Part shown: positions 6,485 to 51,244 of the stretch, piece by piece
Layout: each line of letters opens with the position of its first letter
Position numbering within the stretch: the stretch's first letter is position 1
Origin: Candidatus Krumholzibacteriia bacterium
GTDB taxonomy: Bacteria > Krumholzibacteriota > Krumholzibacteriia > Krumholzibacteriales > Krumholzibacteriaceae
Direction: 5' to 3'
Assembly (NCBI GenBank): GCA_963836185.1
Contig: CAWIIQ010000001.1
Coordinates: 1,184,001 to 1,248,000, forward strand
Length of the DNA: 64,000 nucleotides
Made by a program: the position numbers and the translations under genes
Notes under the pieces: generated by a model
Databases searched by the model: none
The model's input: the letters and a program-made list of their open reading frames with translations, nothing else
What the model was told of the DNA's origin: nothing

Positions 6485-7879
6485 ATGCTTTCATCTTTCA
6501 AGAAGTTCCCCAGGACATTCTGGGCGGCCAATACGATCGAGCTCTTCGAGAGGCTGGCCTACTACGGGATGAACATCATCCTCGTCCTCTACCTGACAAG
6601 GAGGGTGGGGTACAGCGTAGAGGCTTCGGCCACGATAACGGGGCTGTTCATATCGGCGCTCTATCTCCTGCCGATACCGACGGGAGCGGTATCGGACAAG
6701 ATCGGATTCAAGAACGGGCTCTTCATAGCCTTCTCCGTCCTTGCCATGGGTTACGGCCTGCTCGGCTTCTTCCCTTCAAAATCGATGGTCCTGTTCTCTC
6801 TCGTCCTGATCGCCATCGGGGGCTCATTCGTCAAGCCGGTGATCTCCGGCACGGTGAAGAAAGCCTCACCTCCGGATCTTTCCAAGCTCGGCTTCTCGAT
6901 CTTCTACATGATCGTCAACGTCGGAGGATTCACCGGCAAGATCGTCGCCAAGCTGCTCAGGCAGAATCTCGGGACGTGGCTCTCGAAGTCGGATTTCGAG
7001 GCGCTGAAGAACTGGGTCGCCGCCAACGTTCCTCCCTTTGAGATGACCGAGGCTCTCGCCTCGAGGGCGGCTGAACAGACGCCGCCTATGACTCCCGAGG
7101 CTTTCATCGATATGCTGAAGTGGCAGGGATTCGGGATGCAGGCGATCTGTGTATTCTCGATGCTGATGGCGCTCGTGGCCCTCGCTCTGGTCGCGCTGAC
7201 GTTCAGGGAGCCGGACAGGACGGACGAGCCGCAGCGGTCGATGGGAAAGACATTCTCCGACATGTTCAGGCTCTTCGGGGACGTGAAGTTCGTCACATTC
7301 ATCCTGATATTCGCCGGGTTCGACCTGATGTTCTGGCAGCTCTACATATCGATACCGAAGTACATAGTGACACACATATCGGAATCGGCTCCGATGGAAC
7401 TGATCGTGGCGATCAACCCGCTGATGATAATCCTCTTCCAGCTCCCCGTCGCGAAGGTCGTGCTGAAGATGAAATCGACGACCACGATGGCTCTGGGAAT
7501 GGGGATCTCGGCGATGGCTATGGTGATGATGGGCCTGCTCCCGACGTTGTGGGGGGCTTGCCTGTCGATAATGCTCTTCGCCCTCGGCGAGATGACATTC
7601 GCGCCGCGCTTCCTCGATTACGTCTCGAACCTCGCGCCGAAGGGCAAGGTCGGGCTCTACCTCGGATTCGCCTACGTCCGGGCGTTTCTCGCCAACATGA
7701 TCGGCGGCCCGCTCGGCGGATTCCTGCTGGCGAGGTACGTTCCCGAAGAGGGGGCACGGGAACCTTGGAAGATGTTCTTCGTCTTCGCCGCTATAGGCGG
7801 AGTGGCTCTTGTAGCACTGTTCCTCTATAACAGGCATTACGGCGAGCAGGAGAAAGACGGGGTGCTGACAGAGGGATGA
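6485..7879 (+). CDS. MFS transporter, POT/PTR (di/tripeptide) like
   Basis: ExxERxxYYG motif 'ELFERLAYYG', 'GFSIFYMIVNVGG', about 12 hydrophobic segments. Confidence 0.85.
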   Translation: MLSSFKKFPRTFWAANTIELFERLAYYGMNIILVLYLTRRVGYSVEASATITGLFISALYLLPIPTGAVSDKIGFKNGLFIAFSVLAMGYGLLGFFPSKSMVLFSLVLIAIGGSFVKPVISGTVKKASPPDLSKLGFSIFYMIVNVGGFTGKIVAKLLRQNLGTWLSKSDFEALKNWVAANVPPFEMTEALASRAAEQTPPMTPEAFIDMLKWQGFGMQAICVFSMLMALVALALVALTFREPDRTDEPQRSMGKTFSDMFRLFGDVKFVTFILIFAGFDLMFWQLYISIPKYIVTHISESAPMELIVAINPLMIILFQLPVAKVVLKMKSTTTMALGMGISAMAMVMMGLLPTLWGACLSIMLFALGEMTFAPRFLDYVSNLAPKGKVGLYLGFAYVRAFLANMIGGPLGGFLLARYVPEEGAREPWKMFFVFAAIGGVALVALFLYNRHYGEQEKDGVLTEG

Positions 7880-9676
7880 TACTCTCGGCGCCCGACATAT
7901 TCGTACTCTCATCCTATCTCATCATCGTGTTCGGTATCGGTATCGCCATGTCCAGGCGGGCGTCGCGCAGCACCGAGGAGTTCTTCGTCTCGGGCCGGTC
8001 GCTGCCCTGGTGGATAGTCGGCACGTCGATGGTGGCGACTACCTTCGCCGCCGACACACCTCTTGTCGTCTCGGGCCTGGTGGCCCAGCGGCGGGATCTT
8101 CAGTAACTGGATGTGGTGGAACTGGGCCTTCGGGGCCGTACTGACCGTCTTTCTCATCGCGCCGCTGTGGAACAAGGCGAGGATCACAACCGACGCCGAG
8201 TTGATCGAGCTGCGCTACGATGGAAAGCCGGCCCGGGGACTGAGGTTCTACCGCGCCGCGTGGTTCGGGATATTCCAGAACGTGCTGGTGCTCGCCTGGG
8301 TGATGCGTGCGATGGCCAAGATAATACTCGTGGTGATGGGCTGGGACTCGGGGACGACGGTGCTCGGTATTCAGGCGGACGTGTTCACGGTGCTGGCACT
8401 CTTTGTCATCGCGGTCACATATACTGCCCTGTCGGGGCTATGGGGCGTAGTCATCACCGACGTCGTCCAGTTCGTCATGGCGATGGCCGGCTCGATCTAT
8501 CTCGCTGTCGCGACTTGGTCGAGGCTGGGCGGGCTCGACGGTATCCTCGAGCGCCTGCCCGGTTCCGGGTTTGACGCGAGGGAAGTGCTGAGAATCCTGC
8601 CCGCCCCGGACAATCTGCTCGCGGCCAACCCGTTCACCGAGTTCCTGCTGCTTATAGTCGTTGTCTGGTGGGCGTCATACCAGGTCGACGGCGGGGGATA
8701 TCTCTCGCAGAGACTCTTCGCCGCTAAGGATGAGCGGCACTCCGTATTCGCCTATCTCTGGTTTTGCGTCGCGCACATATGCCTGCGGCCATGGCCTTGG
8801 ATCATCGTAGGCATCGGGGGGATGGCCCTCTTCGGGCAGGTCGGCGATCCCGAGACCTACTACCCGATGATGATGCGTGAGATTCTGCCGCCCGGGATCT
8901 TCGGCCTCGTCCTGGCCTCTTTTTTCGCCGCGTTCATGTCTACGATAGACACCCAGCTCAACTGGGGATCTTCACTCGTGGTAAACGATCTTCTGCGCCG
9001 ATTCCTGTGGAAAGGGAAGAGCGACCGTAGCTACATGACCGCCGCGCGCCTGTCGGTCCTCGCTCTGGCGGTACTCGGCGCGCTCGCGTCATTCGCTCTC
9101 AATGATATCTCGTTCGCATGGAAGCTGATCATCTCGATAACAGCCGGGATCGGATCGGTCTACATCGCGCGCTGGTACTGGTGGCGGGTCAACGCCTGGT
9201 CGGAGATATCGGCGATGGCCACCGCCGGAGTCTGTACCCTCGTATTCGCGATCATGGCATCGACCGAGAGGTTCGCCGGATCGCCGGTGACGCAGTTTCC
9301 CTACTCGACGGTCATCACCTTCCTGATAGTCGTGCCTGTCTGGCTCACGGTGACGATGTTGACCAGGCCAGTCAGCGACGAGCGCCTCATCGAGTTCTAC
9401 AGGCGGGTCGGGCCGGGCGGCAGGGGCTGGGACCGGATCAGGGCGATGGCGGGGGTGGAGGCGCTGCCTGGGACGGCCCGTCGGACCGCCCTGAAGATCG
9501 TCTCCGGAATCATCCTCGTCTTCTCGACTCTTATCGGGACGGGGAGCCTTATACTCGGAGCGCCGGGGAGAGGGCTCCTGCTCCTCGGGCTGGCAGCAGC
9601 GGCCGGGATCGCACTTTTTCTCCTGATGCGCGGAGAATTGAAACATTCCGGCGGTAATCGTGTATTAGATAAATAA
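7876..9676 (+). CDS. Sodium:solute symporter family protein (frameshift near 8090)
   Basis: 'FFVSGRSLPWW..GTSMVATTFAADTP', 'SGLWGVVITDVVQF', 'QRLFAAKDE', 'AAFMSTIDTQLN'. Confidence 0.9.
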
Positions 9677-34603: not shown

Positions 34604-35707
34604 TTGTGCGCAGGACTGTTTTGTGACGAGGAGAAACTGCTGAAAGATAAAGTAGTTATATACATTCTGCTGGCTCTTGCCGCCCCCTTGTTCGCCGCAC
34701 CGGCGGTGCTGTGTGCGGAGGATTTTACCCACCTCTATACCCTGGATAACGGCACATCAGTAACTGTCTATACGCCGGAAGTCATCCTTTCGAGCATGAC
34801 AGAGCGTGACCCGAGTGGAAATCTCGTCTTTTTCCCTGAAGGCGGGGGCAGCTATTTCCTGATAGAGGATGTTTTCAGCCCGCTTATCATGAACCATGGT
34901 GCCGGTGAGTTCTTCCCGATGAGTGAAGAGACAGTCATGCAGGCCCTTCGTGAGATCGATATCGATGGGCGCATGATCGATATGCACGTCGATATCTATA
35001 TTCTCCCGATGCCGAGACTGTATTACATGAACAGTACTTCGATTGGATGCAGGATATTTCTTTCACCGGGAGTATGGGAAGTGTCCGCATCGACGACCGC
35101 AAGTATCATCACTCACGAGTTTGGCCACTGTTTTCAGAAGGCTTACCTGCCCGATGTGGATGTTGAGGGATGGGAGACATATCTCGGGTTAAGGGGCATA
35201 CTGGATGATCCTGTCTACACCGAGAGTGCTATACATATGAACAGGCCCAGTGAGATATTCGCCGAGGATTTCAGAGTGCTTTTCGGCGGAGAACTTGCCG
35301 TCTATCCAGGCAGCATCGAGAATCCCTTTCTCGCTCAGCCTTCTGATGTGGTCGGGCTTGAGGAATTCATGGCTTCTCTTGCCGGCGAAGCTGTCGAGGC
35401 CGAGCTTCCGGCAGGCAGCGAGGTCATAGCGTCGGTCGGCAACTATCCCAACCCATTCAATCCCGTGACAACGATCAGGGCCGCCTTCAATGGACCGGTC
35501 ATCGGCAAAGATGTAAGTGTCAGGATCTATGCCGCCGACGGTTCACTCGTCAGGGATCTCTGGTCGGGCAGGGTCTCTCAGGAAACATTTGAGAAGACGT
35601 GGGATGGGATGAATGACTACGGAGCCAGGGCTGCGAGCGGGATCTACTTCTACCGAGTCACCGCAGGTCATGAATTTCGCACGGGGAAAATGCTTCTTGT
35701 ACGGTAG
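34604..35707 (+). CDS. Secreted zincin-like metallopeptidase with C-terminal FlgD-Ig domain (start uncertain)
   Basis: 'THEFGH' followed by 'EIFAEDF'. C-terminus 'NYPNPFNPVT...WDG...ASGIYFY...KMLLVR'. Confidence 0.78.
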   Translation: MCAGLFCDEEKLLKDKVVIYILLALAAPLFAAPAVLCAEDFTHLYTLDNGTSVTVYTPEVILSSMTERDPSGNLVFFPEGGGSYFLIEDVFSPLIMNHGAGEFFPMSEETVMQALREIDIDGRMIDMHVDIYILPMPRLYYMNSTSIGCRIFLSPGVWEVSASTTASIITHEFGHCFQKAYLPDVDVEGWETYLGLRGILDDPVYTESAIHMNRPSEIFAEDFRVLFGGELAVYPGSIENPFLAQPSDVVGLEEFMASLAGEAVEAELPAGSEVIASVGNYPNPFNPVTTIRAAFNGPVIGKDVSVRIYAADGSLVRDLWSGRVSQETFEKTWDGMNDYGARAASGIYFYRVTAGHEFRTGKMLLVR

Positions 35708-35733: not shown

Positions 35734-37282
35734 TTATGGGTGACCCGGCCATGGAGTTACGAGACTCAGTAGCCGGGTCTTCCCTTTTGACCGACGTTTC
35801 CAATCTGTCGGTAGTTTTGCCTTATTAATTGGTTCCCCTCGGTACTGCCCGGAACATCGGCGTTGCACCTCATAACGATACTGTCCTCTTTGTTCTTTGA
35901 CGCGATCCTCAGGTTTCTTTTTATCAGTATTCTTCTTGTTCATACGATCCAGATAAAACTGTTCCATTGGGTCCGTGAGATATTGTTCCGCAGCTTCCTT
36001 GACATACTGCTCCATGTGCTTCTTTCCGTAGGCCCTCTCGGCCTCGAGCCGGTTGTGCTTCCCGCACAGCAGCCTGAGATTCTCCGGTGAGTCGTCCCCG
36101 CCCCTGGCAAAGGGGACCTTGTGGTCTATCTGCAGGTCCCAGGTAGACCCGCATCTCCTGCCACCGGGGGAGACAAAGGAACATCGCCCCTTGTCCCTGG
36201 CATAGACCTCGTCGCGGACCTTCCGGGGGATATGACGGGAGATACCTTTCTCGCGCGAGCCGCCTGCGGCAGTACCAGGGTCTATCTTCTGCTGCTATTC
36301 GATCTCCCGCTGCATTGCCGCTCCTGCCGTACTCTTCGATTTCCTTCTCGGCCCTCTTCTCCCTCTTCTCTTTTCTCCTGATCCTCCCCTCAGGGCTTTG
36401 TCTTTCGATGTACTCGTCCATCAGAAGAGAGAAGAGCTCGCCGAGCTCAAGATGCCTGTGATACTTCGAGGAGAGAAGAGAACGGACCCTCTCGACCTTT
36501 CGCATGAAGTCCGGATCCGCTCCGAACGTGACCTTCAACCTCTCCTCGAAAACCACTGTCTGCGCGGCGAAGGGCCTGCTGCCAGTATCAGGGCTGGCTG
36601 CCGGCCCTTCGCCGCTGCCAGTCTCGCTCCCCTTCGAAGTGGCAGGATTTTTACCGCCACCGGTGGCGGTGGAGAATTTACCACCCCCGTCTAATGTGTT
36701 GTCTCCGTACCTGTTGCCATCGTTCGTCTTGTCTCCGTCACTCTTGCAATCGCCATCTCTGACCTCGAGCAGAGTTTTTACATATACCGGGGTGACCCTG
36801 TCTCGGATAGCGCTCTTCGGCCTGCGGCTGCTGACAAGAAGCTCGACCTCTCTCTTCGAGGCTCCCTCTATCCGGCAAAGAAGATCAGAGACATTCTCCG
36901 GTGTCATGATCCTGGTGATCATCGCGAGGTTGGTCATGCTGACCTTCCCGCAGGAGAGCGAGCGGTAGACAGCCGGGTAGTCCCTGATGCACCTGGCGAT
37001 ACTTATCCTCCTGGCCGCGGTGGACTCGGAGTACCCGAGACGCTCTGTGCAGAACTCATAGAGAGAGCTGAAGCCGAGAGGAAGATAGAGCTTTCTTCTG
37101 TCTATCTCGATCAGGTGCACGAGGATAGAAAGCACTGTCTTTCTCTCAGTCTCAGAGAGCTTGCGTATCCCGGATAGAAGGGCCCTGTTTGAGACAGACT
37201 TCAGGGCTTTTGCTCCAGGGATGGTCTTTGTGGATCTACTGCTGGAACAAATCGAGCTCTTCGTCGTCCTCATCATCGTCAC
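35734..37282 (-). CDS. HNH endonuclease with long DUF222-like N-terminus (frameshift near 36280)
   Basis: N-terminus 'HLIEIDRRKLY..LGFSSLYEFCTERLGYSE..A.RRI..AR'. The alternate frame reads 'SRHIPRKVRDEVYARDKGRC...C...LQIDHKVPFARGG...ENLRLLCGKHN' and joins ORF 35734..36015. Confidence 0.85.
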
Positions 37283-38814: not shown

Positions 38815-39765
38815 ATGAGGTGCTGCATCGATCTAGGAAGCAGCTACTTCAGGAAGCTCGCTGTTGATGTCGAGAATGGCCCCGATGGGCCGAGTTTCAG
38901 GAATCCTGTTCAGGAGAGAGTATATATCGGCTGGGGTGAGGAGGTCGAACACAACGGGACTATCTCTAAGGAGACCGCAGAGAGTGCCGCTGAGATTCTC
39001 AGGAGACTCACAGGGGATATGACAGGGCGCGCAGGCGTTCATCTGACGGTTGTAGCGACGAATGCGCTTCGTGTCGCGTCAAACCGCGATGAGGTCAGGG
39101 AGTATCTCGAGGATATCGCTGGAGTGGAAATTAATATCCTTTCGGAAAGAGGAGAAGCCCTTCTCGGATTTGCTGGAGCGACATCAGAACTGACTAATGG
39201 TACTCCAGTCATCCTGGTCGATCTGGGAGGAACAAGCACCGAACTCTCATGGGGTTCAGCGCCCGCCGGTTCTGCATTTGTATCTTTGCCGCTGGGAACG
39301 CATTCATATCTTGATCCCGGGGCAGTATCCGAACTGATCGCTGATATCTTCCCGGCATCGGGGATCCCTGTCGGGGATTCACGCTTGCCGGGCTCGAGAG
39401 AAAGTCATACAATCATGGTCACCGGCGGGACCGCTGTCAGCCTTGCGGTCGCCTGGAAACAGATGATCGGCGAAAAATATGATGATGCCGTGTCGATCGG
39501 GATCTCCGCCGACGAGTTCGAGAGGCTCTATGAATGGATCGACGCCTTTTATCTTTCAGGGGCTGAGCAGGAGCTTGCTCTGCCGCTCGAAAGGATAAAG
39601 CTGTTCCTGCCGGGTATGAAGATGCTCAAAGAGTTTTTCAGGGCTCTTCAGGCGGATGGAATGACGATAACCGCCCGCGACCTCAGATGGGGCGTCGTGT
39701 TGGGCGATGGAATAACAGAATGGGGGTACCTTGCCGATGAGCAAGAGAGTCCTGATAGTCGATGA
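38815..39765 (+). CDS. ppx: Ppx/GppA family phosphatase, short form
   Basis: 'IDLGSS', 'VATNALRVASN', 'EALLGF.G', 'DLGGTSTE'. Confidence 0.8.
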   Translation: MRCCIDLGSSYFRKLAVDVENGPDGPSFRNPVQERVYIGWGEEVEHNGTISKETAESAAEILRRLTGDMTGRAGVHLTVVATNALRVASNRDEVREYLEDIAGVEINILSERGEALLGFAGATSELTNGTPVILVDLGGTSTELSWGSAPAGSAFVSLPLGTHSYLDPGAVSELIADIFPASGIPVGDSRLPGSRESHTIMVTGGTAVSLAVAWKQMIGEKYDDAVSIGISADEFERLYEWIDAFYLSGAEQELALPLERIKLFLPGMKMLKEFFRALQADGMTITARDLRWGVVLGDGITEWGYLADEQESPDSR

Positions 39766-41113
39766 CGAAGCAAGCATACGGAGCTCACTTGAGAAGCTTC
39801 TTTCCTACGAGAAATATACAACTCTATCCGCGCCCGACGGTCCATCCGCATTGGAGGTAGTGGCCGACAAGAGGATCGACATCGTCCTGCTGGATATCAA
39901 GATGCCGGGTATGGATGGGCTCGAAGTCCTTCAGAAGCTCAAAGAGATGAAAGAAGAATTGCCGGTAATAATCATATCCGGGCACGGAAACATATCCACG
40001 GCTGTCGAGGCTACCAAGCTCGGCGCATTCGATTTTATAGAAAAACCGATAGATCTGGACAGACTCCTGCTTACCGTAAGGAACGGCCTGAAGCAGGGAA
40101 CGTTGAGTCAGCAGAACATCGAACTCCGCGAGAGGATACCGGGCGGCACGGAGATCGTCGGCGAGCATCCATCTATAAAGGAGATACTCGAGACGATAAA
40201 CCGTGTGGCACCGACCAGTGCGAGGGTCCTCGTTATGGGAGAGAACGGAACGGGCAAGGAGCTCGTCGCGAGAAAGCTTCACGAACTCAGCACCAGGAAT
40301 ACCGAACCGTTCATCGAAGTGAATTGCGCTGCTATTCCGGAAGAGCTGATAGAAAGCGAACTCTTCGGCCATGAAAAGGGATCGTTCACCGGCGCTGTCT
40401 CGAAGAGGATCGGAAAGTTCGAACTTGCCGATGGCGGATCGCTTTTCCTCGATGAGGTCGGGGACATGAGCCTGTCCGCCCAGGCGAAGGTCCTTCGCGT
40501 CCTGCAGGAATCCGTGTTCGAGAGGGTAGGAGGGACCGAGACGAAGAAGGTGGATGTCCGTGTAATCGCAGCATCGAACAAGAATCTGCTGGAGGAAGCG
40601 GGCAAGGGGAACTTCAGGGAGGACCTGTTCTATCGGCTCAATGTCGTACCGGTTGAGATGCCCCCTCTGCGGGACCGAAGGTCCGACATCCCGATGCTGG
40701 TATCGCATTTCCTCGATCAGGTCGCAGTCGAACTCGGTGCCGCCGCGAAGAAGGTCGACAAGAAGGCGCTCGAGATGATGGTCGAATACTCCTGGCCGGG
40801 AAATGTCAGGGAGTTGAGGAACCTGATCGAGAGACTCTGCATCCTGACTCTCTCCGATACTATTACCAGGGAAGACATGCCTTCGCTCGTCCTCACCAGG
40901 GAAGAAGATATGATGAAGGATCCGTTCGGCCTGCAGACTTACCAGGAGTTCAGGGACTTTACGGAGAGAGAATTTCTCGTTAAGAAGCTGCGCGAAAATA
41001 ACGGGAATGTTTCGAAGACAGCGCGTCAACTCGGGATGCAGCGCAGTAATCTGTATAAGAAGCTTGAGAAGTACAGCATCGATCTTAGAAGTGATAAAGA
41101 CGAAGAAAATTGA
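39737..41113 (+). CDS. Sigma-54-dependent response regulator (REC-AAA+-Fis HTH), NtrC/NtrX family
   Basis: REC 'LIVDDE...LLDIKMP', 'GENGTGKE', 'ESELFGHEKGSFTGA', 'FLDEVG', 'WPGNVREL', HTH 'GNVSKTARQLG'. Confidence 0.95.
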   Translation: MSKRVLIVDDEASIRSSLEKLLSYEKYTTLSAPDGPSALEVVADKRIDIVLLDIKMPGMDGLEVLQKLKEMKEELPVIIISGHGNISTAVEATKLGAFDFIEKPIDLDRLLLTVRNGLKQGTLSQQNIELRERIPGGTEIVGEHPSIKEILETINRVAPTSARVLVMGENGTGKELVARKLHELSTRNTEPFIEVNCAAIPEELIESELFGHEKGSFTGAVSKRIGKFELADGGSLFLDEVGDMSLSAQAKVLRVLQESVFERVGGTETKKVDVRVIAASNKNLLEEAGKGNFREDLFYRLNVVPVEMPPLRDRRSDIPMLVSHFLDQVAVELGAAAKKVDKKALEMMVEYSWPGNVRELRNLIERLCILTLSDTITREDMPSLVLTREEDMMKDPFGLQTYQEFRDFTEREFLVKKLRENNGNVSKTARQLGMQRSNLYKKLEKYSIDLRSDKDEEN

Positions 41114-41250: not shown

Positions 41251-41318
41251 TATTCTGTGGGTGTTTAGGGTGTGACGGGTCTTTTTGGGACAGGTCAGTT
41301 CCAGGAGGAGATAAGGTC

Positions 41319-41627
41319 ATGAAGAGAACGGCTCTTCTTATTGCCATTCTGATCGCGTTCTCTCTCACTGCAGTATCGCAGGTCTACGCCTCACCGATAG
41401 CTGGTGAAAAGGCGGTGACCGTTTCCAGCTGGCTCTCATACTATATTGCCAACTTCCTGAGAGCGCATCGCGTTACCGTCGGATATGAAGACGGGCTCAT
41501 CAGCGATGCAGGAGAAAATGAGATACTGCGTGGAGACGCGGATGATTACGCGAATGGTAAAGGGGATATAAAGGATCTCGATCCCATTATTCCCAACGAC
41601 GACAAGAAGATTACGGAACAGGATTAA
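41319..41627 (+). CDS. Small secreted protein or propeptide (102 aa)
   Basis: Strong AGGAGG RBS, Sec signal peptide MKRTALLIAILIAFSLTAVSQVYA, acidic low-complexity C-terminal half. Confidence 0.8.
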   Translation: MKRTALLIAILIAFSLTAVSQVYASPIAGEKAVTVSSWLSYYIANFLRAHRVTVGYEDGLISDAGENEILRGDADDYANGKGDIKDLDPIIPNDDKKITEQD

Positions 41628-41690
41628 TTACTAGCGGTCTACTTACGGGCTCTACCGGTAATTCGCCAATTGCCACTTAAGGAGAAACCG

Positions 41691-44600
41691 ATGCCTGACG
41701 GCCCGCAAGGTAAAGAGAATTTCGAGTACGAAAAACACCAGCCGAGGCATAAGTTCAAGTCTACCGGCACCGAGGAAGAACTCGGCGACATGCATCTGTC
41801 GACCGAGAATTACTCGGTTGCGCTGGAATACTATGACAAGGCCCTCCAGAAGGTCCAGACCGCCGGCGGCGGTCCGAGCGACCTCGTAAGAGTCTACAGG
41901 AAAATCAGCGACTGCTATCGAAAGAAGGGATTGCTGCGCGAGGCCATGTCGTTCCTCGACAGCGCCGCGACTCATTGTGATGAAGAGGACCTGATCGGCA
42001 AGGGTGCTATCGCGTGCCGCCGCGGGATCATCCTCTACGAGCGAGGCGACATCAAGCACGGGCTCAGAGAGGCCTGCTCGGCTTACAGGATCCTGCGCAC
42101 GAGCGATGAGCACAGGGAAGTCGCTCACACGCAGCTTCTTGTCGCGAACTGCTATGCCAGGCTGGGGCGCAGCGACGAGGCTGAACAGTATTTCCTCGAT
42201 GCTCTTTCCTCTTACAGGCGTATCGGCGACACGGTCGGTGAGTCATATGTATTGAACAACCTGGGACTGTTTCACAAGAATGCATGTCGCTGGGGCAGAG
42301 CTCTCCAGTTCCTCGGCAGAGCCCTCGAGATCTGCGACGAAGTCGGTCTGACCCAGCACAGGGTCAGGGTCACGCTTAACATGGGCATCGTTCACCTTAA
42401 GAAACGTGACTTCGCGGGAGCGGAGAGCGCTTTTGTCGCGGCCAGGGATATGGCCAGGCGGATCGGCGATGACCTCAAGTATACCAAGTCCACCTTGATG
42501 CTCGGTGTAAAGGAGACAAGAGCGGGGAATCTGCTGGCCGCCGAGAAACACCTGCTCGAGGCACGGGTCACTGCGGAGCGGAGAAATTACCAGCGGGAGA
42601 CCGCTCTCGCCGACGAGTTCATCGGAGACCTGATGCTGGCGAAGGGCGATCTCGAGGATGCCCTCGAAAACTACACCATCGCGCTCAAGTCCGCCTCGAG
42701 ACTCAACCCGCAGGGTGACATTGTCGCTGAGGTTCAGCGCCGGATGATGAATGTCTACCTCGTTCAGAGAAAAGCCGAGGAGGCGCTCTCCATCGGCCGC
42801 CGTGCCATCGAATCGTGCCGCCGCAGCGGAGAGATGCACGAAATAGGATACGTTGAGAGAATGATCGGTCAGGCTCTTGCCATACAGAAGAAAGAGACCG
42901 AGGCCGAAAAACAGATAAACATGAGTATCAGGACCTTCCTGTCGGTCAACAATCCGTACGAAGCTCATAAGTCGGGAGTGATCCTGGGCGAGCAGCTGTT
43001 CCGCAGGGGAGACAGAAGGTCGGCGGTGATGGCGAGGAAACTCGTCAGCGAGACTGTCACGTTCTTTGAAAGGAACGAGGAGTACGCTGATCTGGCGGGA
43101 AGCCATTTCCTCCTCGCGAGGATCGAGGATATCCTCGGCAACAGGGATGAATGCCTGCTGCATCTCTTTGACGCGCAGCGGCTCGCGGAAGAGCTTCACG
43201 ACCGCAACCTGAACAGGCGCCTGCGCAGGATGCGCAGGAAGATAGAGGACGCTGCCGCCGGACCTCACGGGGCGCCGGGCAGGGACTCCTGCCAGTCCGG
43301 TGTGCTGAACGGTACGTTCATGCATGATCCGCAGCTGAAGTCCTATCTGGACTATATTCTCAGCGACCTGATGAGAAATCTCTCGGCAGGTCACGGGTTC
43401 GTCGCGCTGACCGATGGCAAGGGCAGTGAGCCGGTAGTGCTAGCCCGCCGCGGGATCGGGGACCAGGAGACGAAAGCTATCACCGAGTGGTTCCTCACTG
43501 GTGACGACGCCGACACTACCGAGAAATTCCTCGTTACTGATACGATGAACGATCGGCGTGTCAGGGAGATATTCGGACAGCTCCCGGGTGGCGATTCTCC
43601 CGCCTATTTCCATCCTCTCAGCAAGGGAGGCAGGAACTTCGGGCTTCTGTTCTTCCAGTCCGAAGGGAATGAGGGAGCTCCGACCGTCGGATCGATATTC
43701 GAGATAGTGTCGACATACGCCGGATTCATCGATTTCCTCATCAGCGGATCGATCATGGGCGCGCCGCCAGTGCCGGGTGCTGCTGCCGCGAAGAAAGGTA
43801 TCGATGGATTCATAACGAACGACGAGAAGATGCTCAGGATCCTCGATCTGGCGGGCAAGGTCGCGGTGAGCGATTCCACTGTGCTGTTGATGGGTGAGAC
43901 CGGAACCGGCAAGGGCCTTGTAGCCCAGGCGATCCACGATATGAGCAGAAGGCGTAATAAGAAGTATATACATGTGAACTGCGCCGCGCTCCCCGAGATG
44001 ATCCTGGAGAGCGAGCTTTTCGGTCACGTCAAGGGCTCCTTCACCGGAGCGGTGTCTGACAAGAAAGGTCTTCTCGAGGAGGCCGACGGCGGCACGATAT
44101 TCCTCGACGAGATCGGGAAGGCTCCTCTTCCGATACAGGGTAAGCTCCTTCAGTTCCTCGACACGAGAAAGGTGAGACCGGTCGGCAGTAACGAGATGCT
44201 TGCAGTCGACGTCAGGTTGATCTTCGCTTCCAAGGTGGATCTGCTTCAGCTCTGTAGCGAGGGAAAGATGCTCGAGGATTTCTATTACAGGATCAATGAT
44301 TTCCCGTTGACTATCCCGCCGCTGCGTGAACGCAGAGGGGACATTCCTCTCCTGGCGGATTATTATCTGCGCAGCAGTTGCTCCGCAATGGACCGTAAGA
44401 TCATCGGGTTCAGTGATGACGCTGTGGAATTTCTGATGAACTGCGAATGGCCGGGAAACGTCAGGGAACTCAGCAAGATAATCAAGCGTGCTGTCATCCT
44501 GGCCGAGGATAATGGCGTGATAACGCCTCAGCAGCTTGCGTTCGATTTTGCCGGGAAGCCGGAAGAGACGATCAACGACTCAGTGACCTTGCCCGACATG

Positions 44601-44738
44601 GTCAGGGAACTCGAGAGAAAGATAGTCTCGGAAGCACTCGGCGGGAATGAATGGAACAGGAAGGCCGCTGCCGCAGAACTGGGCATCAGCTATCCCACTC
44701 TTCTCAAGAAGATCCGCGATTACGGGATCATCCAGTAG
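41691..44738 (+). CDS. TPR-repeat / GAF-like / sigma-54 activator AAA+ / Fis-HTH enhancer-binding protein
   Basis: AAGGAG RBS, about 480 aa of TPR-like helices ('LGDMH...ALEYYDKAL', 'LNNLGLFH', 'LNMGIVH'), 'GETGTGK', 'ESELFGHVKGSFTGA', 'FLDEIG', 'WPGNVREL', HTH 'WNRKAAAAELGISYPTL'. Confidence 0.93.
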   Translation: MPDGPQGKENFEYEKHQPRHKFKSTGTEEELGDMHLSTENYSVALEYYDKALQKVQTAGGGPSDLVRVYRKISDCYRKKGLLREAMSFLDSAATHCDEEDLIGKGAIACRRGIILYERGDIKHGLREACSAYRILRTSDEHREVAHTQLLVANCYARLGRSDEAEQYFLDALSSYRRIGDTVGESYVLNNLGLFHKNACRWGRALQFLGRALEICDEVGLTQHRVRVTLNMGIVHLKKRDFAGAESAFVAARDMARRIGDDLKYTKSTLMLGVKETRAGNLLAAEKHLLEARVTAERRNYQRETALADEFIGDLMLAKGDLEDALENYTIALKSASRLNPQGDIVAEVQRRMMNVYLVQRKAEEALSIGRRAIESCRRSGEMHEIGYVERMIGQALAIQKKETEAEKQINMSIRTFLSVNNPYEAHKSGVILGEQLFRRGDRRSAVMARKLVSETVTFFERNEEYADLAGSHFLLARIEDILGNRDECLLHLFDAQRLAEELHDRNLNRRLRRMRRKIEDAAAGPHGAPGRDSCQSGVLNGTFMHDPQLKSYLDYILSDLMRNLSAGHGFVALTDGKGSEPVVLARRGIGDQETKAITEWFLTGDDADTTEKFLVTDTMNDRRVREIFGQLPGGDSPAYFHPLSKGGRNFGLLFFQSEGNEGAPTVGSIFEIVSTYAGFIDFLISGSIMGAPPVPGAAAAKKGIDGFITNDEKMLRILDLAGKVAVSDSTVLLMGETGTGKGLVAQAIHDMSRRRNKKYIHVNCAALPEMILESELFGHVKGSFTGAVSDKKGLLEEADGGTIFLDEIGKAPLPIQGKLLQFLDTRKVRPVGSNEMLAVDVRLIFASKVDLLQLCSEGKMLEDFYYRINDFPLTIPPLRERRGDIPLLADYYLRSSCSAMDRKIIGFSDDAVEFLMNCEWPGNVRELSKIIKRAVILAEDNGVITPQQLAFDFAGKPEETINDSVTLPDMVRELERKIVSEALGGNEWNRKAAAAELGISYPTLLKKIRDYGIIQ

Positions 44739-45082
44739 ACCTGTATATTCCGCACATCCGATCGATTCCAGTCATCGTCGCGTATTAATGGTCCAGGCCG
44801 GTCTTTTTGATTTATTTTTATAATAATCGGAGACCGTCCGGCGCCACGATGCGGTCATTTCGACATCCGTCGGCCAGAATGGTTTCCATGAACAATTTCA
44901 TTGTCATTTCAAGATGTTGCCCGGCAACGTATTATGGGTGGCCCACGGGATGTGTAAAGAGTCTTTATCCCGAGTGTATTCCCGCTGCGGGACGTAAGAT
45001 TTAGCGCAAAAGTACTGCTTTGTAACAGATTGAATATGAATGCGTTGCGGTGCATTCGCGCAGACCGGCCGATGCTCCGTTT

Positions 45083-45098
45083 TGGAACGGTGCTTGCC
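45083..45098 (+). promoter_or_regulatory. Sigma-54 (-24/-12) promoter facing a non-coding region
   Basis: TGGAACGGTGCTTGCC with GG 45084-85 and GC 45096-97. Confidence 0.65.
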
Positions 45099-45108
45099 TT
45101 TACATATA

Positions 45109-45419
45109 ACCGGTATCGGTTGGCGAATGGGAAGTGGCAAAACCGGAGAGATGCAGAGATTTCGATCCCATAAGCTCTCTTATGAAGCTTGAAATAGGGT
45201 ACAGGTGGGGTCTCTAGGGAATGAAATCTCAAACATCTCTCCGGTAATTTTATATCCGTAAATACCCCTATTATATAATTTAAACTTGACTCTGAGTACC
45301 CCAGAACATTTATACTTAATATTGTCAGGGGTGTAAGATACCTAAGGAATGGCGAGATCCATAGGAATGCGAGTATGGACATCCCCTCCGGTGCTCGCGT
45401 CTTGTGCCCCTGACTTTTT
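45109..45419 (+). ncRNA. Candidate structured non-coding RNA(s): two long hairpins ending in a U-tract
   Basis: Stems 45142-45153/45234-45245, 45156-45163/45223-45230 and 45324-45339/45399-45414, then TTTTT. No credible plus-strand ORF. Confidence 0.5.
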
Positions 45420-45795
45420 CTATCCACGACATTTTCTGAGATAAAGGCGAAGCTGGACCGGCAACCGGTCTGTGCGCAATCGAAGTGCGTGCGGTCCATA
45501 GTAAAGTCTATCCATCTGACCGGACCACGTGATCGACCCTCACAGTCGTCATCAAACCTGTTCCCTTCTGTCCGGTTTCGCCGAGGCGGACGCAATTACT
45601 AAAGTCGTGATCTTGTCCCTTTTCGGGGACGTTTGTGTGGAATAGATACGACAATTCCCGGTGGTGCGTGGGCAGGCGTTGTGCTTTCGGGGAGCAGGCA
45701 CACCGCCCGCCGGCGATTTTTAAAGACCTGCATCTAAATACCTTCCACGATCAATCAAGCATATATCACTACGCATCCGAGGCATCGTACGGAGG

Positions 45796-45811
45796 TGGCA
45801 CGCCAGTTGCG
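45796..45811 (+). promoter_or_regulatory. Sigma-54 (-24/-12) promoter, near-consensus
   Basis: TGGCACGCCAGTTGCG versus consensus TGGCACGNNNNTTGCW. Confidence 0.85.
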
Positions 45812-45824
45812 TTTATATATCGAC

Positions 45825-46814
45825 ATGATGAGAGCAGGAAGCGCACATAAAGCATCACAGGTTTTGACAGCGATTCTGATTGCCGGATTTTTGTTCATTT
45901 CCTCCTGTTCAACGGAGGAACAGATCGTGTACGTGCCGATGGAGGTCCCAGCGGATTGTCCTCCATCGGCACCTCGCGGTGTCTACGCGATCAACCTGGA
46001 TGGCTATGTGCAGATACGCTGGATTCCGAACCCCGAGGACGACATCGCGGGTTACGACATATGGAAGAATGACGAGCTCTATGGGACGTATGAGTGGGTC
46101 GATTATGTGCTGGTAGAGGATCCTGAACCTTTCGAATACTACTTTGAGCACGACACTCCGAACGGCCAGAAGTCCTATTACGCGGTATCCGCTTACGACG
46201 TGAATGATAACATGAGCGAGCTGAGCTACGAGGACGTCAGCGCGACGCCGAGGCCGGAAGGATTTCTCACACTTTATGACGAGTCGGTCGAAGCCGATTC
46301 CTGCGGTTACGATTTCTCTTCGCAGAGTAACATCGCGCAGGACTGCTCGCTTCCGACGACAGACATCATGTTTGATACGACCGGCGGGGTCAACCGGTTC
46401 GTGGTCAACATGCCGATCGTCATGATCCAGGATTACGGTTATACATCCAGTTTCGATGATATCAATATCGCTCCCGAGTCCGGCTGGTCCGATGCAGGGC
46501 TGGCCGAAGTCATCGATAACCATTGCTACATAATCAGGATCGGCGAGTCCGACGGCCTGCACTATGTGAAGCTCTGGGTACACACGATTGGGGGCGGTTA
46601 TGTAGATTTCTGGTGGGCATATCAGACGGATCCCGGCAATACGGATCTGATGGAGTCCGCTGGAACCGATGAGTTAACATCCGGTCCGGCAGAGACCGGT
46701 GGAATAAAGGTCATGAACGGTTTTCCAAAAGGTCGACAAGTCCCCCCGACGCTTACAAGCTCGGGTAAACAGGACGATGACAGAATCCTGCAGCGGCAGA
46801 ACACCTTACCTTAA
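45825..46814 (+). CDS. Lipoprotein with FN3-like domain (start uncertain)
   Basis: Lipobox 'ISSC'. FN3 pattern 'PPSAPRGV...W.PN.E.DIAGY.IW...YYAVSAYD...SELS'. Confidence 0.8.
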   Translation: MMRAGSAHKASQVLTAILIAGFLFISSCSTEEQIVYVPMEVPADCPPSAPRGVYAINLDGYVQIRWIPNPEDDIAGYDIWKNDELYGTYEWVDYVLVEDPEPFEYYFEHDTPNGQKSYYAVSAYDVNDNMSELSYEDVSATPRPEGFLTLYDESVEADSCGYDFSSQSNIAQDCSLPTTDIMFDTTGGVNRFVVNMPIVMIQDYGYTSSFDDINIAPESGWSDAGLAEVIDNHCYIIRIGESDGLHYVKLWVHTIGGGYVDFWWAYQTDPGNTDLMESAGTDELTSGPAETGGIKVMNGFPKGRQVPPTLTSSGKQDDDRILQRQNTLP

Positions 46815-46981: not shown

Positions 46982-49900
46982 ATGCGTATACCTGTTTCGT
47001 TCATAAGGATCACCACCGCCGCTATAGCGGCGGCAGCTTTTTACGGAGCCTTGGCCCCGGTACAGGGAGCCTTTGCCTATGGACCTGAGATGAACAGCAT
47101 TCCGCGCATGCCGAAGGGCCGGCCGGCCGGTGTTTACCAGCAGCAGGCGATATCCGGCCTCCTTGCCGGCAGTTTCGACGCGCCGGATACCCTTGAGCTT
47201 CTTGTAATACGTGTAGCCTTCTCCGATATGGATTTTACATCTCCTCCTCACGATTCGCTCTATTTCGCCAACGAGATGAGGCACACCTGGGAGTATTTCA
47301 GGGGAGCATCCATCGGGGCGTTCGGCCTTGGCTGGAAGATAGCGGCAGGCGTCACAACGCTCAGTTTCGAAGCGGCATACTACGGTGATGATGACCTGTG
47401 GGAGGAGAGGGTATCGGAGATCCTCATGGAGGTGGTTGCGGAGAATGACGACGAGATAGATTTCTCGCGATTCGACGCTTTTGCCATTATCCATCCGGGA
47501 GCCGGCCAGGAGACCGACTTCTCGGGCGATTCTCCCTGGCAGCTCTGGTCGGGCTTTATCGATCCGGTCGAGATGGATGCTGTGCTGGCCGATACACTTG
47601 GGACCCCGGGGGTGCCCACGAACGATCTCATCGCCGGAGATACATTTTACGTCGACAACGTGATGGTCCTGCCGGAGAACGCCTCGCAGGACGGATTAAC
47701 ATTCGGCTCTCTCGGGATCTACGCCTATCAGGTCGGAATGCGTCTCGGATTGATCCCGATGTACGACACGACACCGTCGGGTTATCCCGATTCACAGGGG
47801 ATAGGAGCGTTCGGCCTGATGGGGTACGGCCTGTACAATGCTTCAGGCTTTATACCGGCTTTTCCCTGCGCGTTCCATCGATACCTGATGGGATGGACGG
47901 AGCCGGTGACTATAGATGCTGACGGCAGTGTCGATGTGGTTGATATAAACTCGTCGATGCCGGCGGATACATCGCTGGTAAGGATAGAGATCAGCCCTAC
48001 CGAATATTTTCTCATCTCGAACAGGGTGCACGATAAAAACATGAACGGCCGTTTCGATTTCGGCGATGTGAACGGCGACGGCATCCCCGCTAACGAGGAC
48101 ACTCTTCTAGGTGCCGAATTTGATTTCTTTCTCACCGCGACGACAAACCCTTTCCACTACGAGGATATCAGCGGCGAGCAGGTCAAGGTAGTCGATACCG
48201 GAAGCGGTATCATGATCTGGCATATCGATGAGACTATTATCAGGAACCAGCTCGGCATAGGGCGCTACCCCAACGACAATCCGGGAATCAGCGGCGTCGA
48301 CCTCGAGGAAGCGGACGGCGTACAGGACCTCGACCGTCCGGGCGGGAGCTATGCCTTCGGCGGCTGGGGGGATTCATACAGGGACGGCTGGTACACCGAG
48401 TTCGGGCCGGAGACGATACCGGCGAGCCTCAGCAACACTGGAACTCCGACAGGCCTGACCCTGTCGACCGATTCGCTTCCGGGCCCGGTGATGAACATCT
48501 CTATCGAGTCGGGAGAGGAACTTCCCCGTGTTACGGGCGAGATCGACGGGACAGTGATGAACCTTTCCCCGGTCGTTGCCCAGCTGGATGGCGACGTAGA
48601 ATATGAGCTCATACAGGCTGCCGATACAGGCAGGATATATATCGCGTGGGATGCCGGTGCCCAGGCGTGGGACGGCTCTTTTGATCTGGTCGTGGATATA
48701 CCGGGAGCCGCGTGGTCGGGTACGCCTGTCGCGGCGGAGCTCGATGGAACTCCTCCGATGGAGATCCTTGCGGGATCGCGCGACGGCAGGATACATGCTT
48801 ACCGGACTGACGGCTCTCCGTATCCGATCGATACCGGACCTTCACCCGGCTCGCTTGAGGTAAAGGGCGAGATCGTCAGTATGCCGATAGCTTTCGAGGC
48901 AGATGGAGATCCCGGTCTGGAGGTAGCGTTTCTCGTCTCTGATGGTGATACATCATGGATGTATCTCGTCGGCCATGCTGATGCGAATGATCTGGACGGT
49001 TTCATCGCTGGCGATGGGGTGTTTGGCGCGCTCATCAGCCCCAGCAGGGTGATCGCTCATCCGGTCCTCTGCGTCGATGATGCCGGCGCCGGCTCAGGCG
49101 GATTCTGTACCGCGGTGACTGATCCTGATGGTCATCTGAGCTTTATGCATATCGAGATGATGTACGGTCCCCCGGGAATGAGCCTCACTTCATGGAGCAT
49201 GACAGGGACTTACGGACTGGAAGATCTGCTGCAGCCCGCTTCGGGAGATATCGACGGAAACGGGACGGATGATGTCATCCTCGCGATTCCGGATGGGGAT
49301 ATCTTCTATATCGATATATCGAGAGGTATTGAGACTTCATCGATCACTCTGGAAAGGCCATCTTCGCCATCTCTCGCCGACATCAACGGCGACGGCACGC
49401 TTGAGACACTCATACGCGATCGCGGCCGCCTCTTTCTTCTGACTGGATTCGGCACCCTGGTATCCGGATGGCCCCTGCAGCTCGAAGAGTATCTCGTGAA
49501 TGTAGAACCCGATACTACCCCTGCCCAGCCGGTGGCGGCCGATGTGGACGGGGACGGGGAACTGGAGGCAGTCTTCAATGTCGCCGGCGAACTGAGGGCG
49601 TATCGATATGACACCAGGCTCGAGCAGGGATGGCCCATAAGGGGAGAAGGGGACCATTCGATCTCTCCTGCCTTTTCACCGGGGGCGGGCTCGAAGATGT
49701 TCATATACACCTCTGGCGGTTCAGGCGGGATAGCCGGGGCCGATCAGACAGGAATGGTTTTCTTTCCCGGAGTCTCGACGGTCTCAAGGATCGATCCGGG
49801 AATCGTGTGGGAAGCCGCGGGAGCCTGGCCGGCATACCGTCTGAATGCGTTCGGCACAGCCAGGCAGGCAATGTCCGGGGGCGATGTCCAGGGCGGGCCT

Positions 49901-50188
49901 CTGGTCGACGGGAACTCGATGATCTGCTATCCGAATCCCGCGACAGGTTATTCTTTCAATCTCCGCCTTAATGTCTCGGAAAAGGCCGATGTGACTGTCA
50001 GGCTGTTCAATCTCGAAGGGACGGAGGTCTATTCCTCCACAGCGACGCATGAGTGGAGCGGCGACGTGCCGTTCGAGACTGCGGTCCCGGTCGGCGGACT
50101 GGCAAGCGGTATATATCTCTGCCATGTGAGGGTACAGGGCGGGGGCGAGGACTGGAGCGGTTCGAGAAAGGTCGCGATAATAAGGTAG
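46982..50188 (+). CDS. M6 (immune inhibitor A)-like protein with FG-GAP repeats and T9SS/FlgD-like C-terminal domain; zinc motif degenerate
   Basis: 'LLVIRVAFSD', 'IIHPGAGQE', 'IGAFGLMGYG', 'GIMIWHIDE', 'VDLEEADG', DxDGDG repeats, 'YPNP...LASGIY...KVAIIR'. Confidence 0.8.
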   Translation: MRIPVSFIRITTAAIAAAAFYGALAPVQGAFAYGPEMNSIPRMPKGRPAGVYQQQAISGLLAGSFDAPDTLELLVIRVAFSDMDFTSPPHDSLYFANEMRHTWEYFRGASIGAFGLGWKIAAGVTTLSFEAAYYGDDDLWEERVSEILMEVVAENDDEIDFSRFDAFAIIHPGAGQETDFSGDSPWQLWSGFIDPVEMDAVLADTLGTPGVPTNDLIAGDTFYVDNVMVLPENASQDGLTFGSLGIYAYQVGMRLGLIPMYDTTPSGYPDSQGIGAFGLMGYGLYNASGFIPAFPCAFHRYLMGWTEPVTIDADGSVDVVDINSSMPADTSLVRIEISPTEYFLISNRVHDKNMNGRFDFGDVNGDGIPANEDTLLGAEFDFFLTATTNPFHYEDISGEQVKVVDTGSGIMIWHIDETIIRNQLGIGRYPNDNPGISGVDLEEADGVQDLDRPGGSYAFGGWGDSYRDGWYTEFGPETIPASLSNTGTPTGLTLSTDSLPGPVMNISIESGEELPRVTGEIDGTVMNLSPVVAQLDGDVEYELIQAADTGRIYIAWDAGAQAWDGSFDLVVDIPGAAWSGTPVAAELDGTPPMEILAGSRDGRIHAYRTDGSPYPIDTGPSPGSLEVKGEIVSMPIAFEADGDPGLEVAFLVSDGDTSWMYLVGHADANDLDGFIAGDGVFGALISPSRVIAHPVLCVDDAGAGSGGFCTAVTDPDGHLSFMHIEMMYGPPGMSLTSWSMTGTYGLEDLLQPASGDIDGNGTDDVILAIPDGDIFYIDISRGIETSSITLERPSSPSLADINGDGTLETLIRDRGRLFLLTGFGTLVSGWPLQLEEYLVNVEPDTTPAQPVAADVDGDGELEAVFNVAGELRAYRYDTRLEQGWPIRGEGDHSISPAFSPGAGSKMFIYTSGGSGGIAGADQTGMVFFPGVSTVSRIDPGIVWEAAGAWPAYRLNAFGTARQAMSGGDVQGGPLVDGNSMICYPNPATGYSFNLRLNVSEKADVTVRLFNLEGTEVYSSTATHEWSGDVPFETAVPVGGLASGIYLCHVRVQGGGEDWSGSRKVAIIR

Positions 50189-50323
50189 GATACTGATACA
50201 GGAGAATAGATGCCCCGGCCGGCTCCCGAAGCAGACGCCGGCATTAAAGCCCACGGGTGTTGATGTTGACCCGGGAGGCTTTATTTACTACAATATATGG
50301 AGATGGCTATGAATGGAGGAAAG

Positions 50324-51244
50324 ATGTCCCGCAAAATGGTTCTGCTGGCCGCAGCAGTATTGATGACTATGACGACTTATGCCTCGGCTGGCGAACCGGG
50401 CTCATCCGGCTTCACGTTTCTCAGGCTTGGAAACGGAGCGAGGGCCGGTGGTATGGGTGAGGCCTTTACCGCCGTAGCGGACGACGCGACCAGCATCTAC
50501 TGGAACCCCGCAGGTATGGTGGGCGTCGAGGAAGTCGAGCTGAACCTTACGCACAACGAGTGGCTGATGGATATAAGGTTCGAGCAGATCACCGTAGTGA
50601 ACGAGATGTGGGGCGGTGCCGCGGGACTCAGTTTTACAGGCCTCTATTACGGCAGCATCGACAGGTACGGCGAGTACCCGTCGCTGACACCTGACGGCAC
50701 TTTCTCGCCATACGACATGGCGCTCTCGCTCGGATATGCCAGGGATATCATTCCAAATCTCGCATTAGGAGCGGCCTTCAAGATAATATACTCAAAAATC
50801 GATTTCGAATCGGCGACCGGATACGCGTTCGATCTGGGAGTGACGCACAGGTCGAAGATCGAGGGCCTGATCCTCGCGGCATCAATGCTCAACCTCGGCC
50901 CCCAGACCAGCTTTGTCGAAGAGAAATTCTATCCTCCATTCCAGCTGAGGCTGGGCGGCGCCTACGAGATCAGGAAGGAAGCCCTTCACGGCGGCCTGAT
51001 CCTTGCCGCGGACGTAGTCTTCCCCAACGATAACGACGCGAAGGCTCATTTCGGCGTCGAGTACGCATACCAGAAACTGCTGATGGTGAGGTTCGGCTAC
51101 AAGAGCGGGTATGATGTCCAGGGGGCTACAATGGGCGCCGGCATCGCGTGGAAGAGCCTGAGGTTTGATTACGCCTATATGCCGATCGATTTCGAGCTTG
51201 GCGATGCTCACCGGTTCTCGCTGACCGTATCACCTTCGCTCTGA
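50324..51244 (+). CDS. PorV/PorQ-family (FadL-like) outer-membrane protein
   Basis: 'FLRLGNGARAGGMGEAFTAVADDATSIYWNPAG', 'FDYAY...LGDAHRFSL'. Confidence 0.88.
   Translation: MSRKMVLLAAAVLMTMTTYASAGEPGSSGFTFLRLGNGARAGGMGEAFTAVADDATSIYWNPAGMVGVEEVELNLTHNEWLMDIRFEQITVVNEMWGGAAGLSFTGLYYGSIDRYGEYPSLTPDGTFSPYDMALSLGYARDIIPNLALGAAFKIIYSKIDFESATGYAFDLGVTHRSKIEGLILAASMLNLGPQTSFVEEKFYPPFQLRLGGAYEIRKEALHGGLILAADVVFPNDNDAKAHFGVEYAYQKLLMVRFGYKSGYDVQGATMGAGIAWKSLRFDYAYMPIDFELGDAHRFSLTVSPSL

Follow-up and report, generated by a model that had tools for sequence, protein, structure and literature searches.

Regulators built of tetratricopeptide repeats (TPRs) that sense peptides in the cytoplasm have been described from Gram-positive bacteria, and the inputs known for sigma-54 activators are phosphorylation, small molecules and partner proteins. 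The locus analyzed here, located in a 64,000-nucleotide stretch of the genome of a Candidatus Krumholzibacteriia bacterium (positions 1,184,001 to 1,248,000 of contig CAWIIQ010000001.1, assembly GCA_963836185.1; this whole stretch is the window, in which positions are numbered from its first letter), pairs a gene for a small precursor with a predicted Sec-type signal peptide and a gene for a sigma-54 activator with a long N-terminal array of TPRs. The linkage of the two genes, the architecture of the activator, the motif of the precursor, the conservation of the promoters and RNAs that follow, and the complementarity of one of these RNAs to the activator mRNA are established. It is rather probable that these elements belong to one circuit of peptide export, trimming, import, binding in the TPR groove, transcription from the first downstream promoter (P1) and small RNA feedback on the activator.

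The closest described systems are those of the RRNPP type (Rap-Phr, NprR-NprX, PlcR-PapR, AimR-AimP), which resemble this locus in that a small gene for a propeptide (here with a predicted Sec-type signal) adjoins the gene of a cytoplasmic TPR regulator, and also in the short conserved core of the propeptide, which is present in tandem copies in some loci. The RRNPP criteria given in PMC10075063 specify a propeptide of 10-100 amino acids (aa) and a receptor of 250-500 aa with C-terminal TPRs, clusters with N-terminal TPRs being discarded; compared with these values, the precursor here is a narrow miss (102 aa, with a median of 107 among orthologues), whereas the receptor has 1015 aa and its TPRs are N-terminal (residues 27-523). 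The locus further differs in the GAF and sigma-54 AAA+ output of the receptor, the extra hydrophobic helix in the precursor, the diderm host (as opposed to Bacillota or their mobile elements) and the status of the receptor as a chromosomal core gene, with one match in 187 of the 200 genomes that encode it. In profile searches, the best solved relatives of the TPR array are the peptide-binding TPRs of kinesin light chain and LGN/Pins, and Rap is just a weak match behind these two (E near 1e-7). Because receptor length, TPR position and host fail, the pair would work like RRNPP systems but is not a member of this family. The TPRs and the adjacency noted in a preliminary description of this DNA, which was made from the sequence alone and read the locus as an RRNPP-like circuit, are confirmed.

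The PatX-PatP-HetR system of Nostoc (PMC12756182) shows that an export-cleave-return route is present in a diderm; the likeness, on the reading proposed here, lies in a Sec-exported precursor processed outside the cytosol, from which a short internal peptide acts on a cytoplasmic transcription factor. HetR, however, is neither a TPR nor a sigma-54 protein, the basic RGTGR of PatX contrasts with the acidic motif here, the phylum is different, and no homology is claimed. Finally, the NifA, NorR and FhlA proteins have the same core of GAF, AAA+ with GSFTGA, and Fis helix-turn-helix (HTH), to which the activator described here adds approximately 500 aa of N-terminal TPRs. The features of the pair are:

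41303..41308, plus strand: Shine-Dalgarno sequence AGGAGG of the propeptide gene, identified in the sequence (similar sites are also present in orthologues).
41319..41627, plus strand: propeptide gene, 102 aa, encoding a predicted signal peptide (1-24), a hydrophobic helix (26-49), an acidic linker, GDADDYANG (72-80) and a disordered tail.
41532..41558, plus strand: core motif G-D-A-D-D-Y-A-N-G (residues 72-80), predicted start of the mature peptide, from conservation among homologues.
41691..44738, plus strand: sigma-54 activator, 1015 aa, with TPRs (27-523), GAF (547-688), AAA+ (708-945, GSFTGA) and HTH, from Pfam and an AlphaFold2 model; single copy in the genome.

With the N-terminal 700 aa as the query and five candidates scored per genome, an orthologue of the activator is identified in 200 of the 208 genomes of the phylum Krumholzibacteriota, including all 125 that are near-complete. 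In each of 60 phylum loci, sampled so as to span families, an open reading frame (ORF) with a signal peptide ends directly upstream of the activator; in locus L109 this ORF is truncated to 48 aa and, read in that frame, has no motif. A profile search yields about 30 further, more distant full-length relatives of the activator. Four distant relatives seeded a metagenome scan that returned 80 loci, 9 of them without upstream sequence. All 71 evaluable loci contain the upstream signal-peptide ORF (69 by script, two on inspection) and 70 have G-[DE]-P-[DE], several of the loci being near-duplicates. These loci are denoted Eisenbacteria-like because six of the eight organism-named relatives of P0130 are Eisenbacteria; under their source names, two small-protein homologues come from Ca. 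Krumholzibacteria and distant relatives from Eisenbacteria. By the same rule, the ORF with the motif is found in none of 75 loci of ordinary activators, taken from a GTDB-wide scan with generic AAA+ patterns, and in 2 of 399 long ORFs of the bacterium's own genome. Linkage of the small ORF to homologous activators, which had been set as a check beforehand, is therefore borne out in 60/60 and 71/71 loci. A full-length TPR match is absent in five other genomes (including one each of Gemmatimonadota, Calditrichaceae and Fibrobacteria), which are perhaps incomplete. Short contigs of a relative in a sediment metatranscriptome, mostly 88-95% identical, extend over the gene junction, the activator, the second structured RNA (RNA B) and the lipoprotein gene; they are not counted as evidence of transcription.

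Adjacency alone is weak evidence because the entire block, from a BamA-like gene to a PorV gene, is syntenic. This synteny is compatible with the view that the small protein is not a ligand but a co-transcribed exported or membrane-tethered product with another partner, the TPR and GAF regions sensing a different protein or a metabolite. However, the pair stays together where the next gene upstream no longer adjoins it:

39731..41113, plus strand: NtrC/NtrX-type sigma-54 response regulator, adjoining the pair in the phylum and adjacent to it in 0 of 53 Eisenbacteria-like loci.

The spacer between the two ORFs (41627 to the ATG at 41691) is 63 bp, as originally noted. A fusion of both ORFs by stop read-through was considered and rejected, given that in-frame continuity is found in 11 of 60 loci, about the chance level.

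The small protein has no match in Pfam or NCBIfam, and its protein language-model neighbours all score below 0.9, which makes them a lead only. Its N-terminus conforms to a signal-peptide pattern by eye and by hydropathy (K/R, a hydrophobic stretch, VYA), and the corresponding n/h/c pattern is detected in all loci by a hydropathy rule that alone also fires at 12 of 75 and 70 of 399 control sites. Besides the signal peptide, the precursors contain a short acidic core and a helix of 13-20 hydrophobic aa, and they range from 74 to 123 aa among 112 orthologues; the helix is encoded 3' of the core in 98 of these and before it in 14, those of the bacterium's own order, with the core retained in both arrangements. 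AlphaFold2 predicts two helices only, disorder elsewhere and no domain (pTM 0.25), in agreement with the expectation that this is not an independent domain protein. The length, the strong ribosome-binding site, the Sec-type export signal (as a sequence pattern) and the GDADDYANG sequence given in the preliminary description are all confirmed, except that the motif is internal and not at the end of the tail.

The sequence GDADDYAN is invariant across 41 close homologues, and GDADD in 27 order-level rows in which the flanks drop to 22-34% identity. Other families have the cores GDADDLAG, GDGDDLAG, GDADGLSG, GDDDDYW, GDPDDIIEG, GDPGGAGDG and GEPD, so that the consensus across loci is G-[DE]-x-D, with G[DE]PD forms outside the order. 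The fourth position is Asp in 103 of 112 distinct precursors, a count in which positions 1-2 are fixed by the selection rule, L237 (SEPD) is excluded and the register of family f5 is set by hand. In four 74-aa forms (L241, L243, L251 and L279), GEPD immediately follows an A-x-A signal-peptidase site, and L208 and L209 each encode two tandem copies of GDPDQY, with GDPDQYANG of L209 nearly identical to the core in the window. Because of the location of the core at the A-x-A site and these repeats, the precursor is likely trimmed to a peptide with an N-terminal Gly.

Two other interpretations of the precursor bear on the same observations. The TPR domain could bind the core of unexported or mislocalized precursor and report Sec failure or membrane stress with no re-import. 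Such a monitor of export would need neither an importer nor a protease, and would explain the single copy, the presence in 125/125 near-complete genomes as a core gene, the low diversity of the motif within the order, the retained membrane-seeking helix and the envelope-related neighbours (BamA-like protein, lipoprotein, type IX secretion system (T9SS) cargo, PorV). We nevertheless consider it quite improbable, as the core at the exact mature N-terminus of the 74-aa forms and the tandem repeats of two loci fit processed peptides better, and the invariant Gly after a variable residue suggests a free N-terminus. Alternatively, the small ORF could be an export-coupled ribosome-arrest leader, as in the SecM and MifM families, in which ribosome stalling at the motif would tie activator translation to leader export. 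The signal peptide, the upstream position, the short spacer and the acidic/proline motif are all in line with such a leader, but the motif is separated from the stop by 20-50 codons, in the 74-aa forms stands directly behind the signal peptide, too close to it for a pulling-force sensor, and covaries with the TPR region (see below), which makes this interpretation very hard to credit.

The activator matches the Pfam TPR families, Sigma54_activat (708-873), the lid and HTH_8 (Fis HTH), and no receiver domain is detected among the 25 of 26 Pfam families listed. An AlphaFold2 model built with 57 orthologues (mean pLDDT 84) contains 25 helices at 27-523, or about 12.5 TPRs over roughly 500 aa, followed by a GAF-like alpha/beta segment (547-688), the AAA+ domain and the HTH. 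This architecture is the one initially reported, and with Walker A and B motifs, an intact GSFTGA (a GAFTGA-type loop) and the Fis HTH, the protein qualifies as a sigma-54 enhancer-binding protein. It falls below the cut-off of every NCBIfam equivalog among the matches listed, and the output of a Foldseek search is dominated by AAA+ domains. The genome encodes RpoN and yields 20 AAA+ activator matches, only one of which has a long TPR region; an 818-aa sigma-54 activator at G000 C2:223091-225547 gives a weak partial TPR match. Conserved polar residues are located mostly on the A helices of the TPRs in a groove register predicted from sequence, with basic residues or Asn in repeats 2-6 and acids in repeats 8-10. 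The conserved groove-register positions are R110, R157, N190, K196, N230, K237 and R351, plus the acids E309 and E347. This pattern suggests a groove suited to a peptide that is acidic and has its amino terminus free. In family f7, the activator lacks the GAF segment and has about 865 aa. Deeper relatives with the TPR-GAF-AAA+ architecture (P0089, P0107, P0109, P0116, P0118, P0156, P0167, P0182 and P0183) differ in the HTH recognition helix.

A comparison of distances in the core with those in activator regions, based on 42 of 61 loci and 169 within-family pairs (families f5 and f8, ambiguous registers, near-duplicates and broken frames being excluded), yields the strongest correlations for TPR3-4 (partial r 0.36, permutation p 0.001) and TPR5-6 (0.37, p 0.002). 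The correlation is weaker for TPR9-10 (0.23, p 0.004) and TPR1-2 (0.19, p 0.02), and absent for AAA+ (-0.04), GAF (0.03), the neighbouring NtrX (0.14), TPR7-8 and the HTH. Residues 27-258, which hold 214 of the 860 variable columns, contribute 20 of the top 30 covarying ones. The preliminary description called for a conserved motif with covariation: one motif is found, and it tracks TPR3-6 over the rest of the activator, whereas a tree-aware check is not significant. The covariation between the core and TPR3-6 is accordingly suggestive only. Its modest size and lack of groove specificity are points in favour of the small protein not being a ligand, as is the GAF domain as a possible second input; conversely, the core tracks TPR3-6 and neither AAA+ nor the equally linked NtrX, and the small protein has no folded domain, so that we regard a non-ligand role as unlikely.

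Downstream of the activator, the following sites are identified:

44952..44970, plus strand: UAS1, an enhancer-like palindrome (TAAA-N5-TTTA) located about 130 bp upstream of P1, from motif sampling on 30 loci; candidate activator site.
45083..45097, plus strand: sigma-54 promoter P1 (-24/-12), in 58/58 loci and in 34/38 Eisenbacteria-like loci.
45614..45653, plus strand: UAS2, upstream of P2; tandem sites of the TGT-N12-ACA type, unlike UAS1.
45796..45810, plus strand: sigma-54 promoter P2, in 45/58 loci.

Both promoters had been noticed before; the strict -24/-12 pattern occurs twice against 0.003 expected, and at least two occurrences are seen in 0 of 5000 resamples. In all 58 loci with usable downstream DNA, a -24/-12 site is located 180-400 bp 3' of the activator (1.4 expected from resampled sequence), and 45 of these have a second one (3.7 expected). 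As a single site, UAS1 scores highest of the promoter candidates listed, and no second convincing UAS1 or UAS2 promoter is found genome-wide among 138 candidates. A common enhancer for P1 and P2 was rejected since the two motifs differ. UAS2 is present in three of 38 Eisenbacteria-like loci. Because P1 persists where NtrX is not adjacent, and P2 has other enhancer-like sites, P1 is probably a target of the TPR activator, with UAS1 as the candidate site. The earlier proposal that this activator drives the genes for the lipoprotein, the pseudo-protease and PorV is unsupported given that P2 carries its own enhancer motif; P2 and these genes are perhaps served by another activator, possibly the NtrX-type neighbour.

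Where a single structured RNA had been reported, two elements are present, listed here after the predicted target of the first:

41661..41695, plus strand: translation-initiation region of the activator, predicted target of RNA A, with a start-codon site (41686-41695) and upstream sites (41661-41678).
45110..45245, plus strand: structured RNA A, whose 5' seed shows complementarity to the start of the activator; it also has a long stem and the conserved GGUGGGGUC (45204-45212).
45326..45412, plus strand: structured RNA B, present once in the genome; it forms a three-way junction whose loops include AUGGCGAGA and CAUCCCC.

Two-sided, compensatory changes are observed in 12 of 32 pairs of RNA A (order-level alignment, 10 rows) and in 10 of 28 pairs of RNA B (order-level alignment, 13 rows); the GGTGGGGTC of RNA A is found in 45 of 58 loci. 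A search of Rfam finds no match for either RNA. The possibility that RNA A is 6S RNA (RF00013) was rejected because there is no match and the 6S gene of this genome lies elsewhere (C1:1727883-1728068). In families f6 and f9 (L081-L097), P1 is followed by a longer multi-hairpin RNA with a GGUGGGG hairpin and a terminator at its end, mostly without the GGCGAG element. In L037 (family f7, 7023-8272), a cytochrome c3-like ORF with CxxCH motifs follows the RNA region in place of P2 and the lipoprotein gene.

For 55 loci, base pairing between RNA A and the mRNA of the activator was computed. In families f1 and f2, the 5' seed of RNA A is predicted to form helices of 10-15 bp, G-U pairs included, that cover the start codon or lie immediately 5' of it, and in f6 and f9 a different seed matches the initial codons at all 15 loci, by 9-10 nt of Watson-Crick pairing as against about 6.2-6.9 across families. 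The P1-driven small RNA is, on the sequence evidence, a better-supported output of the activator than the downstream protein cluster. A related arrangement is the LuxO-Qrr system of Vibrio, in which, according to PMC5394107, small RNAs transcribed under the control of a sigma-54 activator act back on the mRNA of that activator; the likeness here rests on predicted pairing, clear in f1/f2 and f6/f9 but not detected in f4, f5 and f8, and the differences are that LuxO is controlled by a phosphorelay through a receiver domain, which this activator lacks, and that the RNAs here have no Rfam match. Pairing of the C-rich loop of RNA B with the ribosome-binding site of the propeptide gene was rejected (rank 1575 of 4068), and no targets were found for the loops of either RNA. 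The C-rich loop of RNA B is invariant and resembles an anti-Shine-Dalgarno seed; the G-rich loop of RNA A could pair with it or with C-rich small RNAs.

In the proposed circuit, the precursor would be exported via its Sec-type signal peptide and cleaved before Gly, giving a short peptide that starts with G-D-A-D-D. This peptide would re-enter the cytoplasm, where it would bind the TPR groove of the adjoining activator; the genome contains five matches to SBP_bac_5, the Opp/Dpp-type binding protein, two of which are adjacent pieces. The liganded activator would turn on P1 through UAS1 as its presumed site; activation is the assumed sign because the N-terminal domains of sigma-54 activators usually repress until liganded. 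The P1 small RNA would then pair with the activator start codon and damp activator translation. That such a signal passes between cells, as in quorum sensing, is a tentative suggestion, and it is rather doubtful that it reports the cell's own envelope proteolysis.

Several observations weigh against this circuit. The residue before the core Gly is highly variable, with 13 residue types, so that a protease signature cannot be recognized there. Over the whole order the core is near-invariant, unlike specificity-diversified pheromones, and the conserved hydrophobic helix is without a role in a simple diffusible-peptide model. With respect to the covariation, the permutation test ignores tree structure; the tree-aware check, which is underpowered (15 rows), gives two independent pairs that are concordant for a column chosen post hoc, and is not significant; and in most groups the groove positions score much as the remaining A-helix positions and the B-helix positions do, the 'meta' group being unreliable in this comparison because L224 and L280 are in the wrong frame (the TPR3-6 correlation excludes both). 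The strict UAS1 pattern is present in only 13 of 38 Eisenbacteria-like loci. Pairing of RNA A does not exceed background in families f4, f5 and f8, in f3 and f7 it is patchy, and in the bacterium's own genome the activator start ranks 35th among 4068 candidate starts by RNA A duplex energy. No importer gene is recognized among the mapped neighbours, and the candidate maturation protease described below is not found in the metagenome loci, in which the flanks extend 5 kb only.

The neighbourhood is envelope-related, with a BamA-like gene in the window that, like the PorV gene, speaks for a host outside Bacillota, in addition to the following:

34604..35707, plus strand: HExxH metallopeptidase ending in a T9SS-type tail; its position is syntenic, and it is a weak candidate for the enzyme that matures the precursor.
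45825..46814, plus strand: lipoprotein with a lipobox-like FISSC, FN3-like by language-model neighbours.
46982..50188, plus strand: M6-like inactivated metalloprotease with a T9SS-type tail, matching NCBIfam NF052323 'inactivated metalloprotease' below the cut-off.
50297..51244, plus strand: PorV/PorQ family protein, family match above the cut-off.

The HExxH peptidase, the catalytic part of which matches no named family, is a single-copy gene present in 41 of 41 relatives and lies at most 10 kb away in 23 of the 24 where it is on the same contig; because the whole block is syntenic, it is only a weak protease candidate. None of the 17 orthologous rows listed for the M6-like protein contains HExxH, and two paralogues elsewhere in the genome retain it, so that the early identification of a pseudo-protease next to PorV is upheld. 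On the minus strand, a 452-aa ORF (35924-37282) splits the conserved block between the peptidase and rlmN; by eye, it resembles an insertion of the mobile or endonuclease-associated kind, and its end is frameshifted.

Taken as a whole, the preliminary interpretation is partly supported. No description of the propeptide-activator pair was found in the open-access literature, and a term search of PMC12316311 returns neither lineage; the system is undescribed in the literature searched. A broader possibility, which we advance with reserve, is that Krumholzibacteriota and Eisenbacteria possess a phylum-wide, core-genome form of peptide quorum sensing in diderms, independent of RRNPP, in which an exported and re-imported G-[DE]-x-D peptide acts through a one-component TPR-GAF-AAA+ sigma-54 activator on seed-bearing small RNAs with negative feedback. 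Potential uses include cues for growing uncultured lineages and orthogonal peptide-inducible switches. If the proposal is correct, a peptide-gated sigma-54 activator would represent a new input class for such activators, a Gram-positive-style input would be joined to a Vibrio-style output, and peptide signalling would belong to the core traits of diderms that are widespread in sediment and soil.

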